Positions 1 through 6,951 of a stretch of DNA of 64,000 nt are shown piece after piece; within the stretch, counting starts at the first letter, position 1, and the number at the start of each line of letters is the position of its first letter. Below the pieces are notes generated by a model that searched no databases, was not told the origin of the DNA, and saw only the letters and a program-made list of their open reading frames with translations. Source of the stretch: Candidatus Hermodarchaeota archaeon (GTDB taxonomy: Archaea; Asgardarchaeota; Thorarchaeia; Thorarchaeales; Thorarchaeaceae). The translations under genes were made by a program, and so were the position numbers. The DNA lies in the NCBI GenBank assembly GCA_048885865.1, contig JBHLLF010000011.1:1-64000 (forward strand), written 5' to 3'.

Positions 1-224
1 ATTTCAGGTAGCCCTTTCGAAAACTTCGATGTATCGACACCCTCAACTGCTCTCCCCAGTTTGGCAAAGAAGAGCGCGTGACGACCACGACCCATGCCAA
101 GATCAAGAACAGGACCCTTGGGGATTATATCTAGGTATTCGATCAGTTTGAAGTCAGGTCCCTGCTTTCTGTTCTCCACAACCTCCTTGTAGGCTTGAAG
201 CCAGAATGTCTTCTTCTTTGTCAT
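1..224 (-). CDS. Class I SAM-dependent methyltransferase (TehB-like), partial, runs off the window start
   Basis: Not in the ORF track. Manual translation from ATG at 224 gives MTKKKTFWLQAYKEVVENRKQGPDFKLIEYLDIIPKGPVLDLGMGRGRHALFFAKLGRAVEGVDTS, containing SAM motif I (VLDLGMGRG) and the GVD motif. Confidence 0.85.
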   Translation of the reverse strand, partial: MTKKKTFWLQAYKEVVENRKQGPDFKLIEYLDIIPKGPVLDLGMGRGRHALFFAKLGRAVEGVDTSKFSKGLPE

Positions 225-317: not shown

Positions 318-728
318 CTATTTCTTATCCAAGACGAGAATCCTTGGAAGCTTCAGAAGCTTTCCCATGTTACGACCAGTAGTGCCGCCCTTGTAGCGCA
401 ACCGTCTATTGCCGAACCTGTTCTTTGAAGTCATCATCTTAATCGTGGAATACTGTCCATTTGTGAAATACATGAGGTCCTCTGGATCGGCAATAAGCTC
501 TAAATCGAACTCTTCTAAGGTTCCCTTGTTGAGTTCGTATTTTCCAGCATCAGCAACCAAGTTCACCCAGAGAATGAAATCCTCTTCCACATGCAAACCA
601 ATGTTAATTCTGGCCCGAAACTCGTCTAGCGTCTTCGTGTTCTTGGGATTCTTTCGCTTGTCAGCAATCACATCTTCAATCACAGTCTTGAATGTCAGGA
701 ATAGTGTCTCCTGTGCTGATTCATCCAC
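318..728 (-). CDS. SCP2 sterol/lipid-carrier-like protein (divergent)
   Basis: Small alpha/beta protein with an SCP2-like pattern (DLELIADPEDLMYFTNGQYSTIKMMT...RLRYKG). It follows a clearer SCP2 gene and has a GGTGA SD before the GTG start. Confidence 0.6.
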   Translation of the reverse strand: MDESAQETLFLTFKTVIEDVIADKRKNPKNTKTLDEFRARINIGLHVEEDFILWVNLVADAGKYELNKGTLEEFDLELIADPEDLMYFTNGQYSTIKMMTSKNRFGNRRLRYKGGTTGRNMGKLLKLPRILVLDKK

Positions 729-747
729 AACGCATCACCTTGCTTAG

Positions 748-1203
748 CTAGAAGTATTCAGTGTCAACCATTCCTGCAGTTCGGACTAGCTCCTTTGCTG
801 CGTCAGTTGCCTTCAGAACTTTTGCCATTTCACCAACGATCTTCGCCTTTCCACTTAGGAGGCCACGGATAGGATCTAGTTCGCCTTTCAGAATCTCCAC
901 CCAAGTATCATATTCAGCTTCATAGGTGTATTCCACTGCGAGTTTGTCGCCGCTTGCTGATTCGCCCGGTTTGACAATCTCGTATTCATCCTCCCCAGCA
1001 ATGGATTTGACACCAGTACACTTTCCATGGGTCAGTCCGATATAGGCCATGACATCATGATCCAAATTTCCGCTGGCTTTGACTATGAAGATAAAATCGC
1101 CAGTCCACCAAGACGCAGCCTTCTCGTAGGCTTCGTTTGCATTGAGTGCATCCTTGTACAGACCTAACCATTCATCTGAGAACAATTTCGGAATTTCAAT
1201 CAC
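748..1203 (-). CDS. SCP2 sterol-binding domain protein
   Basis: N-terminal FSDEW motif and C-terminal YDTWVEILKGELDPIRGLLSGKAKIVGEM, typical of SCP2. True start may be ATT at 1194. Confidence 0.85.
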   Translation of the reverse strand: MIEIPKLFSDEWLGLYKDALNANEAYEKAASWWTGDFIFIVKASGNLDHDVMAYIGLTHGKCTGVKSIAGEDEYEIVKPGESASGDKLAVEYTYEAEYDTWVEILKGELDPIRGLLSGKAKIVGEMAKVLKATDAAKELVRTAGMVDTEYF

Positions 1204-1268
1204 TCCCTTGTTTTCTACTACTCCAACATGCTACGGAAAACCGATTGATAAATTGAGCTTCAGATGGT

Positions 1269-1553
1269 TCAACCGCCTGCCACCAGTGGGAAAATCGATA
1301 TCTCATCTCCAGAGCTCAATTTCGTTTCAATTCCATTCAGGAACTTGATCTCCCTGCCATTGATTAGTATTGTAATATCGGGCTTAACCTTCTGATCCTC
1401 AGCAATCATTGTTTCCTTTATTCCCGAATCTAAGTAGAGTTCATCAAGGAGCTTTGATATTGTTGCACCTTTTTCCAGTTCCACGTCGATTGGCTCTTTC
1501 TTCCCTATGAGGTCTCGAAGTGTTGCATAGAACTTCACTGTGACTTTCATCAT
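1269..1553 (-). CDS. moaD: MoaD/ThiS/SAMP ubiquitin-like sulfur carrier
   Basis: MKVTVKFYATLRD...ILINGREI...GDEISIFPLVAGG with a C-terminal GG. Start trimmed to the ATG at 1553. Confidence 0.92.
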   Translation of the reverse strand: MMKVTVKFYATLRDLIGKKEPIDVELEKGATISKLLDELYLDSGIKETMIAEDQKVKPDITILINGREIKFLNGIETKLSSGDEISIFPLVAGG

Positions 1554-1632
1554 AGCTCCACTCTGAGTCTTCCAAGCATCAGGCTTATAAAACCGTACAA
1601 GGACCGGTTCAGAATTAGGGGTCAATCCAATC

Positions 1633-4600
1633 ATGTTTGGCTACATGGGCAAAATCCTGCGCATCAACCTGACAACATCCACAATAACAGAGGAATTCCC
1701 TGACGAGGATACTTTGAGGAAATATCTCGGTGGTGCTGGACTGGCAACAAAGATACTCTTTGAAGAAACGGAACGAGGCATTGATCCTCTAGGACCAGAA
1801 AACAAGCTGATCTTCATGACTGGCCCCTTGACAGGAACAACCTCGCCCAGCACAGGTCGCTATAGCGTAGTAACAAAGGCTCCACTCACCAATGGATGGG
1901 GACATGCCAATTCAGCGGGGTTCTGGGGGAGGGATTTCAAACGCTCCGGATTTGATGGGGTGATATTTGAGGGCAGAGCACCAAAGCCAGTCTATTTGCT
2001 GACAGAAGACGGGAAAGCTGAACTTGTAGACGCCTCAGAGATATGGGGGAAGAACACTTCAGAAACCACTAGGATACTCCGAGAGAAGCATGGCGAGAAG
2101 TTCAACGTCGCATGTATCGGTATTGCGGGGGAGAACTTGGTCAAGTATGCAGCTATCATGAATGATTGCGATGAGGAGAATTGGGGGCGTGCAGCAGGTC
2201 GTTGCGGTGTGGGTGCAGTGATGGGTTCAAAGAATCTCAAGGCAATTGCTTCCAAGGGAACCATGACAATCCCTATCGCTGAACCCGACACATACAAGGC
2301 AGAAGCCAAACAGAGATTCGACTGGGTGAACCAGAGCATCTTGAAGATGACACTCGAGGTCTATGGAACAGCTACAATGGTAGACTTGGTGAATGTCAAA
2401 GGGGGTATTCCAACACGGAATTGGCAGACAGGAGTCTTTGATAACGCAGAGCTAATCAATGGAACTGCAATTAACGACAACATATTGGTGAAGCGAAAGC
2501 CCTGCTTCGCATGTCCCATTCATTGCGGAAGGATAGCTGAGATCAAGGCGGGTCCATTCAAGAGTAAAGGAGAAGGACCAGAATATGAGTCACTTGCATC
2601 CCTTGGAACAATGTGTGGTGTTGACAATTTAGAGGCAATCACACTTGCACACTTCTTATGCAATGAATACGGTATTGATGTGATATCTGCAGGGAGCACT
2701 ATCGGATTTGCAATGGAGTGCTATCAGAGGGGCATTCTGAAGAACGAAGATGTGGATGGATTGGACTTCTCTTGGGGTAACGCTCAGCTAGTTGTCGACG
2801 TTATTCATAAGATTGGAAAGCGCGAAGGCATCGGTGACCTCCTGGCTGAAGGCACAAAGAGAATGGCGGAGAAACTTGGTCAAGGGTCCGAGCATTTCGC
2901 CATGCATGTCAAGGGACTCGAGCTGCCTGGCTATGATAGCCGTGCTGCAAAAGTAACTGGTCTCGCTTATGCTGTGGCCAACCGTGGTGGCGATCACATC
3001 ACTGCCTATATCGAAGGCCCAGCTTTCCTTGCTATGCCATTTATGATTGTGGAGGACGCAGATATCGGAGACCCCCTCCAAGAGATTCCTGAAACCGCGT
3101 TAGTTGTGAAGAACTTTGAGGACGCACTTGGGAATTTCGATGCGATCGGTGGGTGTAAATTCATGGGCATGGTTCTCACTGCCGAGGACTGGGCTGGACT
3201 GATGTCGGCTTTGATGGGTCTAGACATTACGCCGGAGGAGTTCCGTACCACAGGTGAGAGAATCTACAATTTGGAGCGAGCCTATATTCTGAGAGAAGGC
3301 TTTACTCGAGCCGATGACACATTACCGCCACGGTTGCTGGAAGACCCATTACCTGAAGGCCCCGCAGAGGGACATGTAGTGGATCTGGATGTTCTTCTTG
3401 ATGCGTACTACAAATACCGCGGGTGGGATGAGCAAGGCAGACCAACGATTGAGAAGCTTCAGGAACTTGGGCTGCAATGGCTTATAGATACAGTCCATGC
3501 AGATGCGGGCGAAACCCTAGAATTGATCAAACATAGAACTCACGTAGCTTCCACTGGCTCCAAGAAGAAAGCTGCTGAGTTGCGAACCAAGGAAGTGGTT
3601 GGAGAAAAGCCATGGCTCGAAAACTACCAGATAGGCCCATTCAAGCTCGAGCACTCTATGGCTCCTTATCCTGAGATGAATGTGTATAAGTTTCTTGAAG
3701 ACACAGCAGCAGAATTCCCAGATGTGATCGCATGCGAATATGCGGATGAGGAAATGACCTATCCCGAGTTGAAGGAGAAGGTGGACAGGCTTGCATCAGC
3801 TTTCGTGGCACTGGGTGTTAAGAAGGGCGATGCTGTTGCGACCGTTCTCCCCTCATGTCCTGAATTCATTATCGCAGACTATGCCGCCATGAAGATTGGT
3901 GCTATTCATGTACCTCTCAGTATTCTGCACAAGGCTGACGACCTGAGATATGAACTCAGTGAAAGCAAAGCGAAGATTGTGGTCTGCTCCTACAGGCGAA
4001 TCGAGCGTGTCAATGAGGTTAAACCTGATACCAGTGTGAAGACTGTCATCTACACACCGACCAAGCTATTCCCCGATTATCAGTATCCTGCCATGGAAGA
4101 CATTGATGATGAGAATTATCACCTCATGGATGACTTGATCCGGAATCATGAACCGCATACTGAAACTGTTGAAATTAATGCAAAGGAAGACATTGCTCTT
4201 CTGCCTTTTACAGGGGGTACCACAGGTCAACCCAAGGGAACGATGCTGACTCACTACAACATAACTACCAACGTGAGGCAGACCATGCATTGGATGATGG
4301 ATCCGCTCAAAGAGGGAATCATCGGGAAGAGCTCAGGTGTGATATGCGTACCTATCTTCCATGCATATGGCCACTGGGCGTTGCACTCCTGCATATCATG
4401 GGGACTCAAGATGTACTTGATGGACTCGAGGGACATTCCAAAGATTGTTGAAGTAATCAACCAGCATCGGCCATTTGTGGTGTTTGCAGTTCCGACTCAC
4501 TATATGCTCTTCTCAAAGATGGATATGATCAAGGGACAAATCTTCTATTTCTCAGGCGCGGCAGCGCTTCCCGCAGACCTCGCTGAGGAGTTCGAGGGGA

Positions 4601-5268
4601 AGGCGGGTGTGCCTATGGGCGAAGGTTATGGTGCAACCGAGACATCCGGGGTCGTCACAATAAACATCTCAGCACTTTCGAAGGTCACAGGCTTCATGGC
4701 GGAAACAAAAAGGGGAGTCGGAGTTCCCATCCCTGAAACTGAGATAAAGATTGTCGACCCTGATACTGGCCAGGAGCTACCTATTGGTCAACGTGGCGAG
4801 ATATGGATACGCGGGCCCCAAATCATGCGTGGATATTGGCCGACGCCAGGCAGTGGATTGAAGGAGGGCGGTTGGTTGCCGATGGGCGACGTTGTCGAAA
4901 TGGACGGAGATGGGTACTTCAAGATTGTTGACAGAATCAAGGACATGATTAACGTCTCCGGGAACAAGGTGTATAGCCGAGTAATTGATGACATCCTGCA
5001 TGAACACGAGGCAGTAGATGTCGCAGGTGTCATAGGCATCCCCGACCCGGAGAGACCAGGGAGCGAGAGAGTGAAGGCGTTCATCCAATTGAAGCCTGAA
5101 TATAGAGGAAAGATCTCTGACCAGGACATCATCGATTTCCTGAAGGGGAAAGTGAAGCCCTATGCGATACCAAAGTGGGTTGAGTTCAGAGATGAGCTAC
5201 CACTTACAGTTGTGATGAAGCTGTTCAAGAAGAAGCTAAGAGAAGAAGAGCTTGCTAAGCTTGGCTAG
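1633..5268 (+). CDS. Fusion of aldehyde:ferredoxin oxidoreductase (W/Mo-bis-pterin, 4Fe-4S) and long-chain fatty-acid--CoA ligase
   Basis: aa ~1-620 AOR: GYMGKILRINL, YLGGAGL, AAGRCGVGAVMGSKNLKAI, CFACPIHC, EGPEYE, DTLPPRLL, YYKYRGWD. aa ~660-1211 adenylate-forming ligase: FTGGTTGQPKG, GEGYGATE, MGD, DRIKDMINVSG and the terminal catalytic Lys (LPLTVVMKLFKKKLR). One uninterrupted ORF. Confidence 0.93.
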   Translation: MFGYMGKILRINLTTSTITEEFPDEDTLRKYLGGAGLATKILFEETERGIDPLGPENKLIFMTGPLTGTTSPSTGRYSVVTKAPLTNGWGHANSAGFWGRDFKRSGFDGVIFEGRAPKPVYLLTEDGKAELVDASEIWGKNTSETTRILREKHGEKFNVACIGIAGENLVKYAAIMNDCDEENWGRAAGRCGVGAVMGSKNLKAIASKGTMTIPIAEPDTYKAEAKQRFDWVNQSILKMTLEVYGTATMVDLVNVKGGIPTRNWQTGVFDNAELINGTAINDNILVKRKPCFACPIHCGRIAEIKAGPFKSKGEGPEYESLASLGTMCGVDNLEAITLAHFLCNEYGIDVISAGSTIGFAMECYQRGILKNEDVDGLDFSWGNAQLVVDVIHKIGKREGIGDLLAEGTKRMAEKLGQGSEHFAMHVKGLELPGYDSRAAKVTGLAYAVANRGGDHITAYIEGPAFLAMPFMIVEDADIGDPLQEIPETALVVKNFEDALGNFDAIGGCKFMGMVLTAEDWAGLMSALMGLDITPEEFRTTGERIYNLERAYILREGFTRADDTLPPRLLEDPLPEGPAEGHVVDLDVLLDAYYKYRGWDEQGRPTIEKLQELGLQWLIDTVHADAGETLELIKHRTHVASTGSKKKAAELRTKEVVGEKPWLENYQIGPFKLEHSMAPYPEMNVYKFLEDTAAEFPDVIACEYADEEMTYPELKEKVDRLASAFVALGVKKGDAVATVLPSCPEFIIADYAAMKIGAIHVPLSILHKADDLRYELSESKAKIVVCSYRRIERVNEVKPDTSVKTVIYTPTKLFPDYQYPAMEDIDDENYHLMDDLIRNHEPHTETVEINAKEDIALLPFTGGTTGQPKGTMLTHYNITTNVRQTMHWMMDPLKEGIIGKSSGVICVPIFHAYGHWALHSCISWGLKMYLMDSRDIPKIVEVINQHRPFVVFAVPTHYMLFSKMDMIKGQIFYFSGAAALPADLAEEFEGKAGVPMGEGYGATETSGVVTINISALSKVTGFMAETKRGVGVPIPETEIKIVDPDTGQELPIGQRGEIWIRGPQIMRGYWPTPGSGLKEGGWLPMGDVVEMDGDGYFKIVDRIKDMINVSGNKVYSRVIDDILHEHEAVDVAGVIGIPDPERPGSERVKAFIQLKPEYRGKISDQDIIDFLKGKVKPYAIPKWVEFRDELPLTVVMKLFKKKLREEELAKLG

Positions 5269-5370: not shown

Positions 5371-6951
5371 ATGTCCAGTAACCTCCGCATCATCATGTTC
5401 TTCTTCCTACTACTTGTCATAAACTCAGCACCTTGTATTAATTCGACCCCTTCAATGAAATCTACCGAAGCAGATAATTCACAAATTCTTGAGTCCGCGG
5501 GGGATATATTCACCTCCATATGTGGAGCAGAGGTCAGAATTAGCAAAACTCCCGAAGCCTTTGAAGGATATAATCTCTTTGTCCTTGCAAAAACAGACAA
5601 AGAAACTCTTCAGCGCAATTTGTGGATGCTGATTGTTGATTTGAACGGTGAGGTCTTGCTTGAAGAGTACCTTGGAGTTGACCTATGGATTTCAGACTGT
5701 GCTGCAGAGTTCATAAATCCAGCAACCATCCTCCTTGGAAAGGACTTCTCAGCGGCAATATACAATCTCACTGATGAGTCGACAACCATTCTGCCGTTTG
5801 GAGGGCATCATGATTATGAGTATAATCCTCTTGACGACACCTTCTTTGCATTACAAAGGTATGAATTAGAGATTGATGAGATAATGTACCAGTATGACAC
5901 CGTCGTTGAATTAGATAGAAATGGGAACGTTGTCTGGTCATTCGATACAGCTTCACTGATTAATGTGAACCAATGGTGTCCGTATCAAGATTATGAATTT
6001 AGTCTGCCTGACATCACACACATGAACACGGTTTACTTCGACGCATATGATGATTCAATATACCTAATGTCCCGAAACACCAATACTTTCTGGAAAATCA
6101 ACCATTCAACTGGCGATGTGGTATGGGCGCTTGGAGAATTCGGTGACTTCACACTATATGATCAACGGGGGATACAAAGAAACAATCTGTTCTTTCATGC
6201 TCATGCTGTCGAAAGAGTAGATGATGAAACCTTCATTCTGTTTGACAACGACTATCATAATCAGACTGATGAGTTTAATGAAGTGTCAAGGATTGTCGAG
6301 ATTTCAATTGATGAGGACACAATGACGGCTAACACTACTTGGGAATGGTCCTCGGAAGAATACTACTCATTCTTGTTTGGTGACGCTGATAGATTGCCGA
6401 ATGGGAATAGACTGGGTGTCTTCGGAATTGCAGGATTTCCCAACTCTGAGTATGGAGCAAGGATAGTTGAGGTCAATGAAGAACATGAGATTGTGTGGGA
6501 GATGGCCTTCGCAAACGACGAAACATATTGGTATATGATCTATAGGAATGAACGATTTCAATTTCATCCAATTCTTCAGGTCCTAGATGTAGAGAATTCG
6601 GATTCTGAGGGTAGCATTACTATCAATTTTGGAGCTTATTTCAATTATCGTCCCAAAAGGGACTTACCAGGATTCTATAGCCTCTATATTGATGATGTCT
6701 TAATCGGGGAGGGAGGAGTTATTTTCGACCGATTTTGGCGGCCAGCTATTGTTTCTTGCTCTGTCCCAAATCCAGGAACAGGACACCCTAATGTAACCCT
6801 AATCGTTTGGAATGGAAATGGGGATTCAGCAAGAATAACAGCAGAATTCGGTGTGACCAGCATCGCTGATAATGCATTACTACTCTTCGCAGTTGGGATA
6901 GTAGGAGTTATTGGACTCATCATTCTCTGGAAACATCGGAATTCGAAATGA
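5371..6951 (+). CDS. Arylsulfotransferase (ASST)-family beta-propeller, signal peptide plus C-terminal TM anchor
   Basis: GHHDYEY, DITHMNT, LMSRNTN, FHAHAVE, FDND and GDADRLPNGNRL motifs; hydrophobic N- and C-termini. Confidence 0.82.
   Translation: MSSNLRIIMFFFLLLVINSAPCINSTPSMKSTEADNSQILESAGDIFTSICGAEVRISKTPEAFEGYNLFVLAKTDKETLQRNLWMLIVDLNGEVLLEEYLGVDLWISDCAAEFINPATILLGKDFSAAIYNLTDESTTILPFGGHHDYEYNPLDDTFFALQRYELEIDEIMYQYDTVVELDRNGNVVWSFDTASLINVNQWCPYQDYEFSLPDITHMNTVYFDAYDDSIYLMSRNTNTFWKINHSTGDVVWALGEFGDFTLYDQRGIQRNNLFFHAHAVERVDDETFILFDNDYHNQTDEFNEVSRIVEISIDEDTMTANTTWEWSSEEYYSFLFGDADRLPNGNRLGVFGIAGFPNSEYGARIVEVNEEHEIVWEMAFANDETYWYMIYRNERFQFHPILQVLDVENSDSEGSITINFGAYFNYRPKRDLPGFYSLYIDDVLIGEGGVIFDRFWRPAIVSCSVPNPGTGHPNVTLIVWNGNGDSARITAEFGVTSIADNALLLFAVGIVGVIGLIILWKHRNSK

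Follow-up and report, generated by a model that had tools for sequence, protein, structure and literature searches.

An Asgard archaeal gene module pairing SCP2-fold proteins with an aldehyde oxidoreductase–acyl-CoA ligase fusion

Introduction

Aldehyde ferredoxin oxidoreductases (AORs) convert aldehydes and unactivated acids into one another at low potential, which no other enzymes are known to do, and are generally regarded as stand-alone, broad-range enzymes. Prokaryotic sterol carrier protein 2 (SCP2) proteins are, as far as we know, almost uncharacterised, and the role of sediment Asgard archaea in lipid and hydrocarbon degradation is debated. Here we analyse the first 64 kb of contig C11 (JBHLLF010000011.1, positions 1 to 64,000; hereafter the window) from the metagenome-assembled genome (GCA_048885865.1; 3.58 Mb, 87% complete) of a Candidatus Hermodarchaeota archaeon in the family Thorarchaeaceae, where a gene for an AOR fused to an acyl-CoA ligase faces a minus-strand run of moaD and two genes for SCP2-like proteins, which we call orfB and orfA. 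The source names of close homologues likewise point to Thorarchaeota, an Asgard lineage. Among the closest described systems are the SCP2 domains of UbiJ and UbiT, which hold hydrophobic ubiquinone-biosynthesis intermediates for soluble enzymes and are encoded beside their partner enzymes, occasionally being fused to them (10.1101/587956). The MoaD-like genes aorD and aorE are encoded with the tungsten AOR of Aromatoleum aromaticum (aorABCDE), with a proposed role in maturation of the tungsten cofactor (PMC6365974). For Asgard archaea, the occurrence of SCP2 domains is all that a 2025 preprint records (PMC12139934).

Over its entire length, the AOR domain of the fusion can be aligned with Pyrococcus furiosus AOR (1aor), but here it carries an acyl-CoA ligase and has SCP2 genes adjoining it. 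The predicted models of orfA and orfB share the SCP2 fold with UbiJ and UbiT, and UbiJ (6h6o) is among the structural matches of both; however, there is no sequence kinship beyond the fold, and the partner enzymes and pathway are different. Peroxisomal MFE-2 and SCPx also tie an SCP2 fold to acyl-CoA-metabolising enzymes, and the operon form of the locus in sister genera includes a double-hotdog MaoC protein with a weak match to the N-terminal part of MFE-2 hydratase-2. In contrast to these peroxisomal proteins, orfA and orfB stand alone and are not fused, and their partner is an AOR-ligase instead of a dehydrogenase/hydratase or thiolase. By sequence, orfB belongs to the subfamily of Thermus thermophilus TT1886 (1wfr, 2cx7), with WxG and HGxC motifs in both, but it has an insertion of 13–17 residues (~aa 78–95) and an AOR-ligase neighbourhood. 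Our literature search found no paper on the ligand or function of TT1886; it may correspond to TTHA0401, a FadR-regulated gene beside one for a zinc dehydrogenase, an equivalence on which we do not rely. As with aorD and aorE, a MoaD-like gene is encoded with an AOR; in contrast to aorABCDE, this is a single-subunit AOR of archaeal type without AorA or AorC partners, moaD is transcribed divergently, and the host moa operon has no MoaD of its own.

Results and discussion

Gene content and proposed function of the locus

The fusion gene (1633–5268, plus strand) is a single open frame of 1211 aa in which a Pfam scan identifies AFOR_N, AFOR_C, AMP-binding and AMP-binding_C domains (Table 1). On the minus strand, orfA and orfB are separated by 19 nt, and orfB and moaD by 65 nt. 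The stretch from orfB through moaD and the spacer into the AOR is bridged, with zero differences, by contigs that the same study obtained from other samples. All four genes are as described in an earlier sequence-only reading, which had noticed a minus-strand run of moaD and two SCP2-like genes facing an AOR-ligase fusion.

We favour, with moderate confidence, the interpretation that the locus represents the form taken in the Thorarchaeota clade by a conserved Asgard module, in which carriers assist the conversion of a poorly soluble aldehyde to an acyl-CoA. In this process, the ferredoxin-dependent, pterin-containing AOR would oxidise the aldehyde to an acid, which the fused AMP-forming ligase would activate to the acyl-CoA. 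The two stand-alone SCP2-fold proteins would most probably act by binding the sparingly soluble substrate or product and delivering it to, or accepting it from, the soluble enzyme, in the manner of UbiJ and UbiT with ubiquinone intermediates. The MoaD-like protein would act as the sulfur-carrier subunit of molybdopterin synthase in general cofactor supply, and both arms would probably be driven, and each perhaps co-transcribed, from the ~80-nt spacer with its single near-palindromic TATA box. The conserved AOR-ligase partnership, fused in one clade, may point to an unstudied anaerobic route that brings water-insoluble aldehydes into CoA-dependent metabolism, and the module offers a concrete, testable function for prokaryotic SCP2 proteins. 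A stronger version of this interpretation, which we regard as unlikely, makes orfA and orfB dedicated subunits that present the substrate and dock on the AOR-ligase fusion, with the module as a soluble, oxygen-independent, ferredoxin-reducing entry into β-oxidation for long-chain or isoprenoid aldehydes. Such aldehydes could come, for example, from wax esters, fatty alcohols or the side chains of archaeal ether lipids. If so, the eukaryotic combination of SCP2 with β-oxidation enzymes would have an Asgard precedent.

Table 1 Features of the locus, in window coordinates.
Feature	Position	Strand	Basis
orfA: 136 aa, predicted SCP2 fold	318–728	-	AlphaFold2 (AF2) model and Foldseek; no Pfam or NCBIfam match
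orfB: 151-aa SCP2 protein, Thermus TT1886 subfamily	748–1203	-	Family profile and AF2 model
moaD: 94-aa MoaD/SAMP1-type beta-grasp sulfur carrier, ends VAGG	1269–1553	-	TIGR01687, NF041918
Divergent spacer, 79 nt, with conserved TATA-like box TTATAAAA at 1585–1592	1554–1632		19-species alignment
AOR domain of fusion, ~aa 1–616	1633–3480	+	AFOR_N, AFOR_C; 1aor alignment
Linker between AOR and ligase domains, ~39 aa	3481–3597	+	Matches stop codon plus 46–58-nt spacer of split forms
AMP-forming acyl-CoA ligase domain of fusion	3598–5268	+	AMP-binding, AMP-binding_C

SCP2 genes are linked to AOR and ligase genes in several Asgard lineages

Scanning one genome per species for orfB gave 451 relatives of the gene, of which we analysed the best 80 loci. 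An AOR was counted as orthologous at ≥60% identity to the AOR domain in the window, with paralogues at 45% or less, and a locus was considered to have full flanks where ≥4 kb was available on both sides (41 of the 80). An orthologous AOR lies within 8 kb of orfB in 43 of the 80 loci, and within 1 kb in 36; among the full-flank loci, 24 of 41 have one near orfB. In the same genus, orfA, orfB and moaD face the fusion in all seven loci with enough flank.

The linkage takes three forms. In the first gene order, the SCP2 genes and moaD are divergent from the AOR-ligase gene; this layout occurs only with the fused enzyme, which 16 further species-level genomes carry, and is kept in every fused locus with enough flank. 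Other Asgard lineages have the AOR and the ligase as split genes, with the same SCP2 genes, in two further gene orders. In the second, which is found in other Thorarchaeota genera, orfA, orfB, AOR and ligase follow one another on one strand, often with a double-hotdog MaoC hydratase and a GNAT gene after them. The third, found in genomes labelled Promethearchaeota or Hodarchaeota, runs AOR, ligase, in some cases moaD, then orfB and a HAD gene. In a maximum-likelihood tree of orfB, the first gene order forms one clade (100/100), the second forms one clade plus one extra row, and the third forms two clades, with the linked gene orders occupying at least four well-supported clades of the tree.

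Presence and absence of the genes follow the same pattern. Among 41 relatives, 11 genomes hold orfA, an orfB orthologue and an AOR-ligase orthologue together, while seven other genera of this family (92–97% complete) yielded neither orfA nor an orthologue of the AOR-ligase; there, the best match to the orfB family is of the type of a paralogue on contig C31 of this genome, which is described below. In a separate case, the single-contig relative G004 (L016, G004:C1:26734-32628) has an AOR-ligase gene that is missing its first 244 codons, and orfA, an orfB orthologue and a moaD above the family cut-off were not found in its genome, where the module looks decayed.

The linkage of the SCP2 genes with the AOR-ligase is therefore real: where the sequence-only reading had proposed a co-regulated unit and named conservation of the neighbourhood in other Asgard genomes as the way to check it, we find synteny in three gene orders along with co-presence and co-absence. 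In the searchable literature, we found no paper that combines 'aldehyde ferredoxin oxidoreductase' with 'sterol carrier protein', and no description of an AOR-acyl-CoA ligase fusion or of SCP2 genes beside an AOR. The module is apparently an unpublished, conserved combination of known families.

Folds of the two small proteins

orfB is an SCP2 protein. Against the Pfam SCP2 model (PF02036), it scores 18.8 bits (E=0.002), under the cut-off of 21.3; many of its close homologues contain PF02036, with the orthologue in G032 at 23.2 bits. A family profile built from 27 homologues matches the Thermus thermophilus SCP2 structures 1wfr and 2cx7 in the PDB at E=5e-24. The AF2 model of orfB has a predicted local distance difference test score (pLDDT) of 90.4 and superposes on 2cx7 with a template modelling (TM) score of 0.76–0.89, a root-mean-square deviation of 2.1–2.2 Å and 31–32% identity, and its further structural matches after 2cx7 are also SCP2 proteins. 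The family alignment shows three conserved motifs, WxGDF, HGxC and DPIRGL. Within the second of these, His59-Gly60-x-Cys62 is invariant or nearly so and is common to Thermus TT1886 (LWHGACRG); a conserved His/Cys pair is unusual in a passive lipid carrier.

For orfA, no sequence match was found in Pfam, NCBIfam or the PDB, and a homologue in G020 reaches 18.3 bits against PF02036, below the cut-off. The AF2 model of orfA, based on 22 sequences, has a pLDDT of 89.7, and at E≤0.001 Foldseek matches it in the PDB to SCP2 proteins or domains exclusively, with TM scores of 0.50–0.61. These matches include 1wfr, 3bn8, 2cx7, 6ovp and UbiJ (6h6o), and cover proteins from Thermus, Archaeoglobus (AF1534) and Yarrowia as well as human SCP2 and MFE-2. 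The ESM Atlas contains no orfA structure and gives just a weak lead to 'sterol carrier' (0.91). The sequence-only reading had called both small proteins SCP2-like and treated the fold of orfA as a point at which the proposal could fail; the models bear out the fold for both proteins, with nothing other than SCP2 among the top matches of orfA. Between orfA and the orfB family, BLASTP detects no similarity and hhalign gives a probability of 0.2%, and because neither method shows a relationship the two are not recent duplicates. Both proteins may bind ligands, as their folds suggest.

The orfA family is narrow, with 40 representative clusters among 1.84 billion proteins, and the source names of the hits are mostly Thorarchaeota. 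One homologue, P0242 (53% identity over residues 1–135), continues into an extension of ~250 residues with several long hydrophobic stretches and looks like a membrane-anchored form of orfA.

The AOR-ligase fusion and its substrate

The AOR part of the fusion scores 262.7 bits against AFOR_N (PF02730) and 466.7 bits against AFOR_C (PF01314), and is closest to P. furiosus AOR (1aor; 548.8 bits, aligned over 1–614). In the ligase part, the adenylation core (AMP-binding, PF00501, 296.9 bits) and the C-terminal lid (AMP-binding_C, PF13193, 45.3 bits) are both present. The best NCBIfam models for the ligase are long-chain-fatty-acid-CoA ligase types, all of which score below their own cut-offs, and because no NCBIfam equivalog reaches its cut-off we leave the substrate class of the ligase unassigned. 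The nearest structures, with similar scores, are a feruloyl-CoA synthetase (8wev), a fatty-acyl-CoA synthase (8weu) and Archaeoglobus FadD-1 (3g7s).

The junction between the two enzymes indicates how the fusion formed. In Thorarchaeota loci with split genes, and in one locus labelled Promethearchaeota, ligase and AOR share a frame and are 46–58 nt apart, with stop codons between them, while the junction is open in the 16 further fused loci. The shared frame across this short distance in the split forms indicates that the fusion arose by loss of the stop codon.

Neighbouring genes in other genomes, encoding an iron-containing alcohol dehydrogenase (Fe-ADH), a MaoC hydratase and a HAD protein, fit a path from alcohol to aldehyde, acid and acyl-CoA and on into β-oxidation, but these neighbours do not fix the carbon skeleton of the substrate. 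A lipid substrate is something that we infer from the SCP2 fold, because the nearest solved relatives of the ligase include feruloyl-CoA and fatty-acyl-CoA synthetases alike. The substrate would probably be hydrophobic, and the reaction would probably run from aldehyde through acid to acyl-CoA.

Other SCP2 genes near AOR or β-oxidation genes

The genome contains ~13 SCP2-like genes, several of which lie near enzymes of aldehyde or acyl-CoA metabolism. SCP2 genes within 5 kb of its eight full-length AOR genes number four, at three loci, versus ~0.35 expected from a rough hand estimate. On contig C31, an SCP2 paralogue that is 41% identical to orfB heads a run of SCP2, NMO/FabK-like, Fe-ADH and AOR-paralogue genes, and in at least five relatives (G003, G015, G022, G028 and G032) an SCP2 paralogue of this type shares its contig with an AOR paralogue, at a distance of 1–3 kb. 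Contig C24 (L057:156-4473) has a β-oxidation-type operon in which a 103-aa open reading frame (ORF) is followed by genes for an acyl-CoA dehydrogenase, an enoyl-CoA hydratase, an SCP2 protein (118 aa) and an acyl-CoA ligase. On contig C4, an SCP2 gene is located 3.2 kb from an AOR gene, upstream of genes for a 2-hydroxyacid dehydrogenase, an FGGY kinase and a class II aldolase. The complete run at this site (L056:2234-8807, G000:C4), all on one strand, consists of a 104-aa ORF, the SCP2 gene (110 aa), the dehydrogenase, kinase and aldolase genes, an AOR paralogue and a membrane transporter gene, and resembles a deoxy-sugar pathway with aldehyde oxidation as its last step.

Related arrangements are also found in other genomes. 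An Fe-ADH gene is divergent from orfA in many loci labelled Promethearchaeota, and in three of them (L096, L103 and L136) an AOR paralogue comes directly after the Fe-ADH gene. A search with orfB as the query for longer, fused forms gave a single protein, the metagenome record P0281. Its SCP2 domain is of the TT1886 type, shows 31% identity to orfB and shares its motifs, and is joined to an N-terminal portion of a LuxC-type acyl-CoA reductase.

Weighing the carrier-assisted interpretation

Several observations count against the carrier-assisted interpretation. In 16 of the 41 full-flank loci, there is no AOR or ligase near orfB. The AOR-ligase-free loci form one clade of the orfB tree, with 27 rows, 16 of them with full flanks, in which orfB is part of a backbone that begins with DUF1512 and orfB and leads on to HAD and PPDK genes. 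Of five genomes checked from this clade, four give the fusion protein no match at E≤1e-150, and the fifth has a ligase orthologue only, on a short contig. The presence of orfB without the AOR-ligase in one clade means that orfB is not strictly dependent on this enzyme. Furthermore, independent instances of the linkage number only ~3–4 because each gene order is essentially one evolutionary event. As for the smaller genes, moaD is absent from the second gene order, and orfA can be called an SCP2 protein by its predicted fold only, at a moderate TM of 0.5–0.6.

The persistence of orfB in the AOR-ligase-free clade, the lack of a fusion-protein match in four of those five genomes, the HAD hydrolase gene that constantly follows orfB in the AOR-ligase-free loci, and the small number of linkage events would all fit an alternative in which the SCP2 genes serve general lipid transfer or housekeeping, and their position beside the AOR-ligase is an inherited gene order with no functional coupling. 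However, the genes remain adjacent through three rearrangements, among them an inversion of strand and an altered order of orfA and orfB, and within one family orfA, the orfB orthologue and the AOR-ligase are jointly present or missing. In G004, a relative with a complete chromosome, where the AOR has lost its N terminus, orfA, the orfB orthologue and an above-cut-off moaD were likewise not found, and a paralogous SCP2 gene is independently linked to another AOR. Weighing these points, we consider an uncoupled, housekeeping role quite unlikely. G032 has the same DUF1512-HAD-PPDK backbone as the AOR-ligase-free clade, with the AOR and ligase genes, in that order, placed before orfB.

The enzymes themselves also leave room for other substrates. 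P. furiosus AOR, the broad-range enzyme to which the AOR domain is nearest, usually acts on short and amino-acid-derived aldehydes, and the top relatives of the ligase include the aromatic CoA synthetase 8wev. The substrates could accordingly be hydrophobic aldehydes other than lipids, either aromatic or branched ones from amino-acid fermentation or phenylpropanoids such as cinnamaldehyde and coniferaldehyde, with the SCP2 proteins binding these or their CoA esters. Among the solved relatives of the ligase, feruloyl-CoA synthetase (8wev) comes first and 4-coumarate-CoA ligases follow, and the MaoC hydratase of the operon form would also suit hydration of an enoyl or cinnamoyl-type CoA ester. 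Set against this are the NCBIfam models, the best of which are all long-chain-fatty-acid types, though below cut-off, the scores of 8weu and 3g7s, which are as good as that of 8wev, and the SCP2 gene inside a classical β-oxidation operon in the same genome. A non-lipid substrate is rather unlikely in our view.

MoaD and pterin-cofactor supply

The moaD product exceeds two family cut-offs, those of TIGR01687 (moaD_arch, 78.7 bits, cut-off 49.5) and SAMP1 (NF041918, 72.7 bits, cut-off 60), and its translation ends in VAGG, in agreement with its original description as a MoaD/SAMP protein with a C-terminal GG. The start that is kept among relatives is an ATG at 1550, and the family models align from an internal MMKVTVKF. 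A longer, 121-aa ORF at 1269–1634 was rejected as a longest-ORF artefact.

This gene is the sole MoaD above cut-off in the assembly. The remainder of the pterin pathway is encoded on contig C18 (L043, G000:C18:51581-54916), in an operon for a TOBE protein, MoaA, a MoaE-MoaC fusion (294 aa), a MoaB-type protein and MoeA, in which no MoaD was found. The claim in the sequence-only reading that the module is self-contained is consequently not upheld. Nor is moaD specific to it: in 41 genomes, 34 of 62 MoaD hits above cut-off are within 5 kb of an AOR, and the operon form in other Thorarchaeota genera has no MoaD. In same-genus genomes, a second MoaD copy above cut-off lies between two other AOR paralogues; this second locus appears to be missing or fragmented in the present assembly. 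Genes for MoaD generally tend to adjoin an AOR in this phylum, and MoaD would therefore serve cofactor supply generally and not this module alone. The module also shows that the moaD genes of the phylum have left the moa operon for the AOR genes.

A different role for the MoaD-like protein, as a SAMP-type ubiquitin-like modifier or an AOR-specific maturation chaperone in place of a general pterin sulfur carrier, is suggested by its score above the SAMP1 equivalog cut-off. MoaD copies also look enzyme-associated, because two other AOR genes flank the second copy in the same genus. The moa operon (MoaA, MoaE-MoaC, MoaB, MoeA) has no MoaD, however, and some AOR-linked copy must therefore do the housekeeping job. 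Haloferax SAMP1 performs both roles, as modifier and as pterin sulfur carrier, and the two readings are thus not mutually exclusive. Although aorD and aorE are described only as putative maturation factors (PMC6365974), a modifier or chaperone that replaces the sulfur carrier is, on balance, highly unlikely.

A conserved box in the divergent spacer

The spacer between moaD and the AOR gene was aligned across 19 species, in which it is 77–84 nt long (79 nt in the window). The sequence has diverged except for a central ACAnCAnGCTTATAAAA block and GGGTC or AGGTC ~10 nt before the ATG of the AOR. The central block reads TTATAAAA in 17 species and TTTTAAAA in two, the latter giving the palindrome GCTTTTAAAAGC. 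The box and the 8 bases on its 5′ side are retained in all 19 species while the flanks diverge, which agrees with the earlier proposal of a divergent promoter region of ~80 nt with a box. The box ends 40 nt before the ATG of the AOR and 34 nt before the conserved ATG of moaD, and both distances would suit archaeal promoters with short leaders. A Shine-Dalgarno-like GGAGC precedes moaD, and GGGTC precedes the AOR gene.

Flanking genes and other domain combinations

The end of the contig, at the start of the window, cuts a gene for a TehB-like methyltransferase (3–224, minus strand). In four close relatives the methyltransferase gene is ~95 nt past orfA, and in another it is ~2.5 kb away. Directly downstream of the AOR-ligase is a gene for a 526-aa arylsulfotransferase (ASST; 5371–6951), an arrangement that is the same in G014 but not in most relatives. 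Both genes were considered as parts of the module and rejected, as they flank it in some close relatives only. Elsewhere in the genome, a 697-aa protein encoded on contig C13 (L140:3090-5183) joins an SCP2 domain to an ASST domain.

An 840-aa AOR in G025 (L139:2177-4699, G025:C44) was considered as an AOR-SCP2 fusion and rejected, since its extra C-terminal domain belongs to the OMP-decarboxylase (OMPdecase)/HUMPS family (142 bits). Genes for ETF beta and alpha precede it, and this fusion may link aldehyde oxidation to hexulose-phosphate chemistry.

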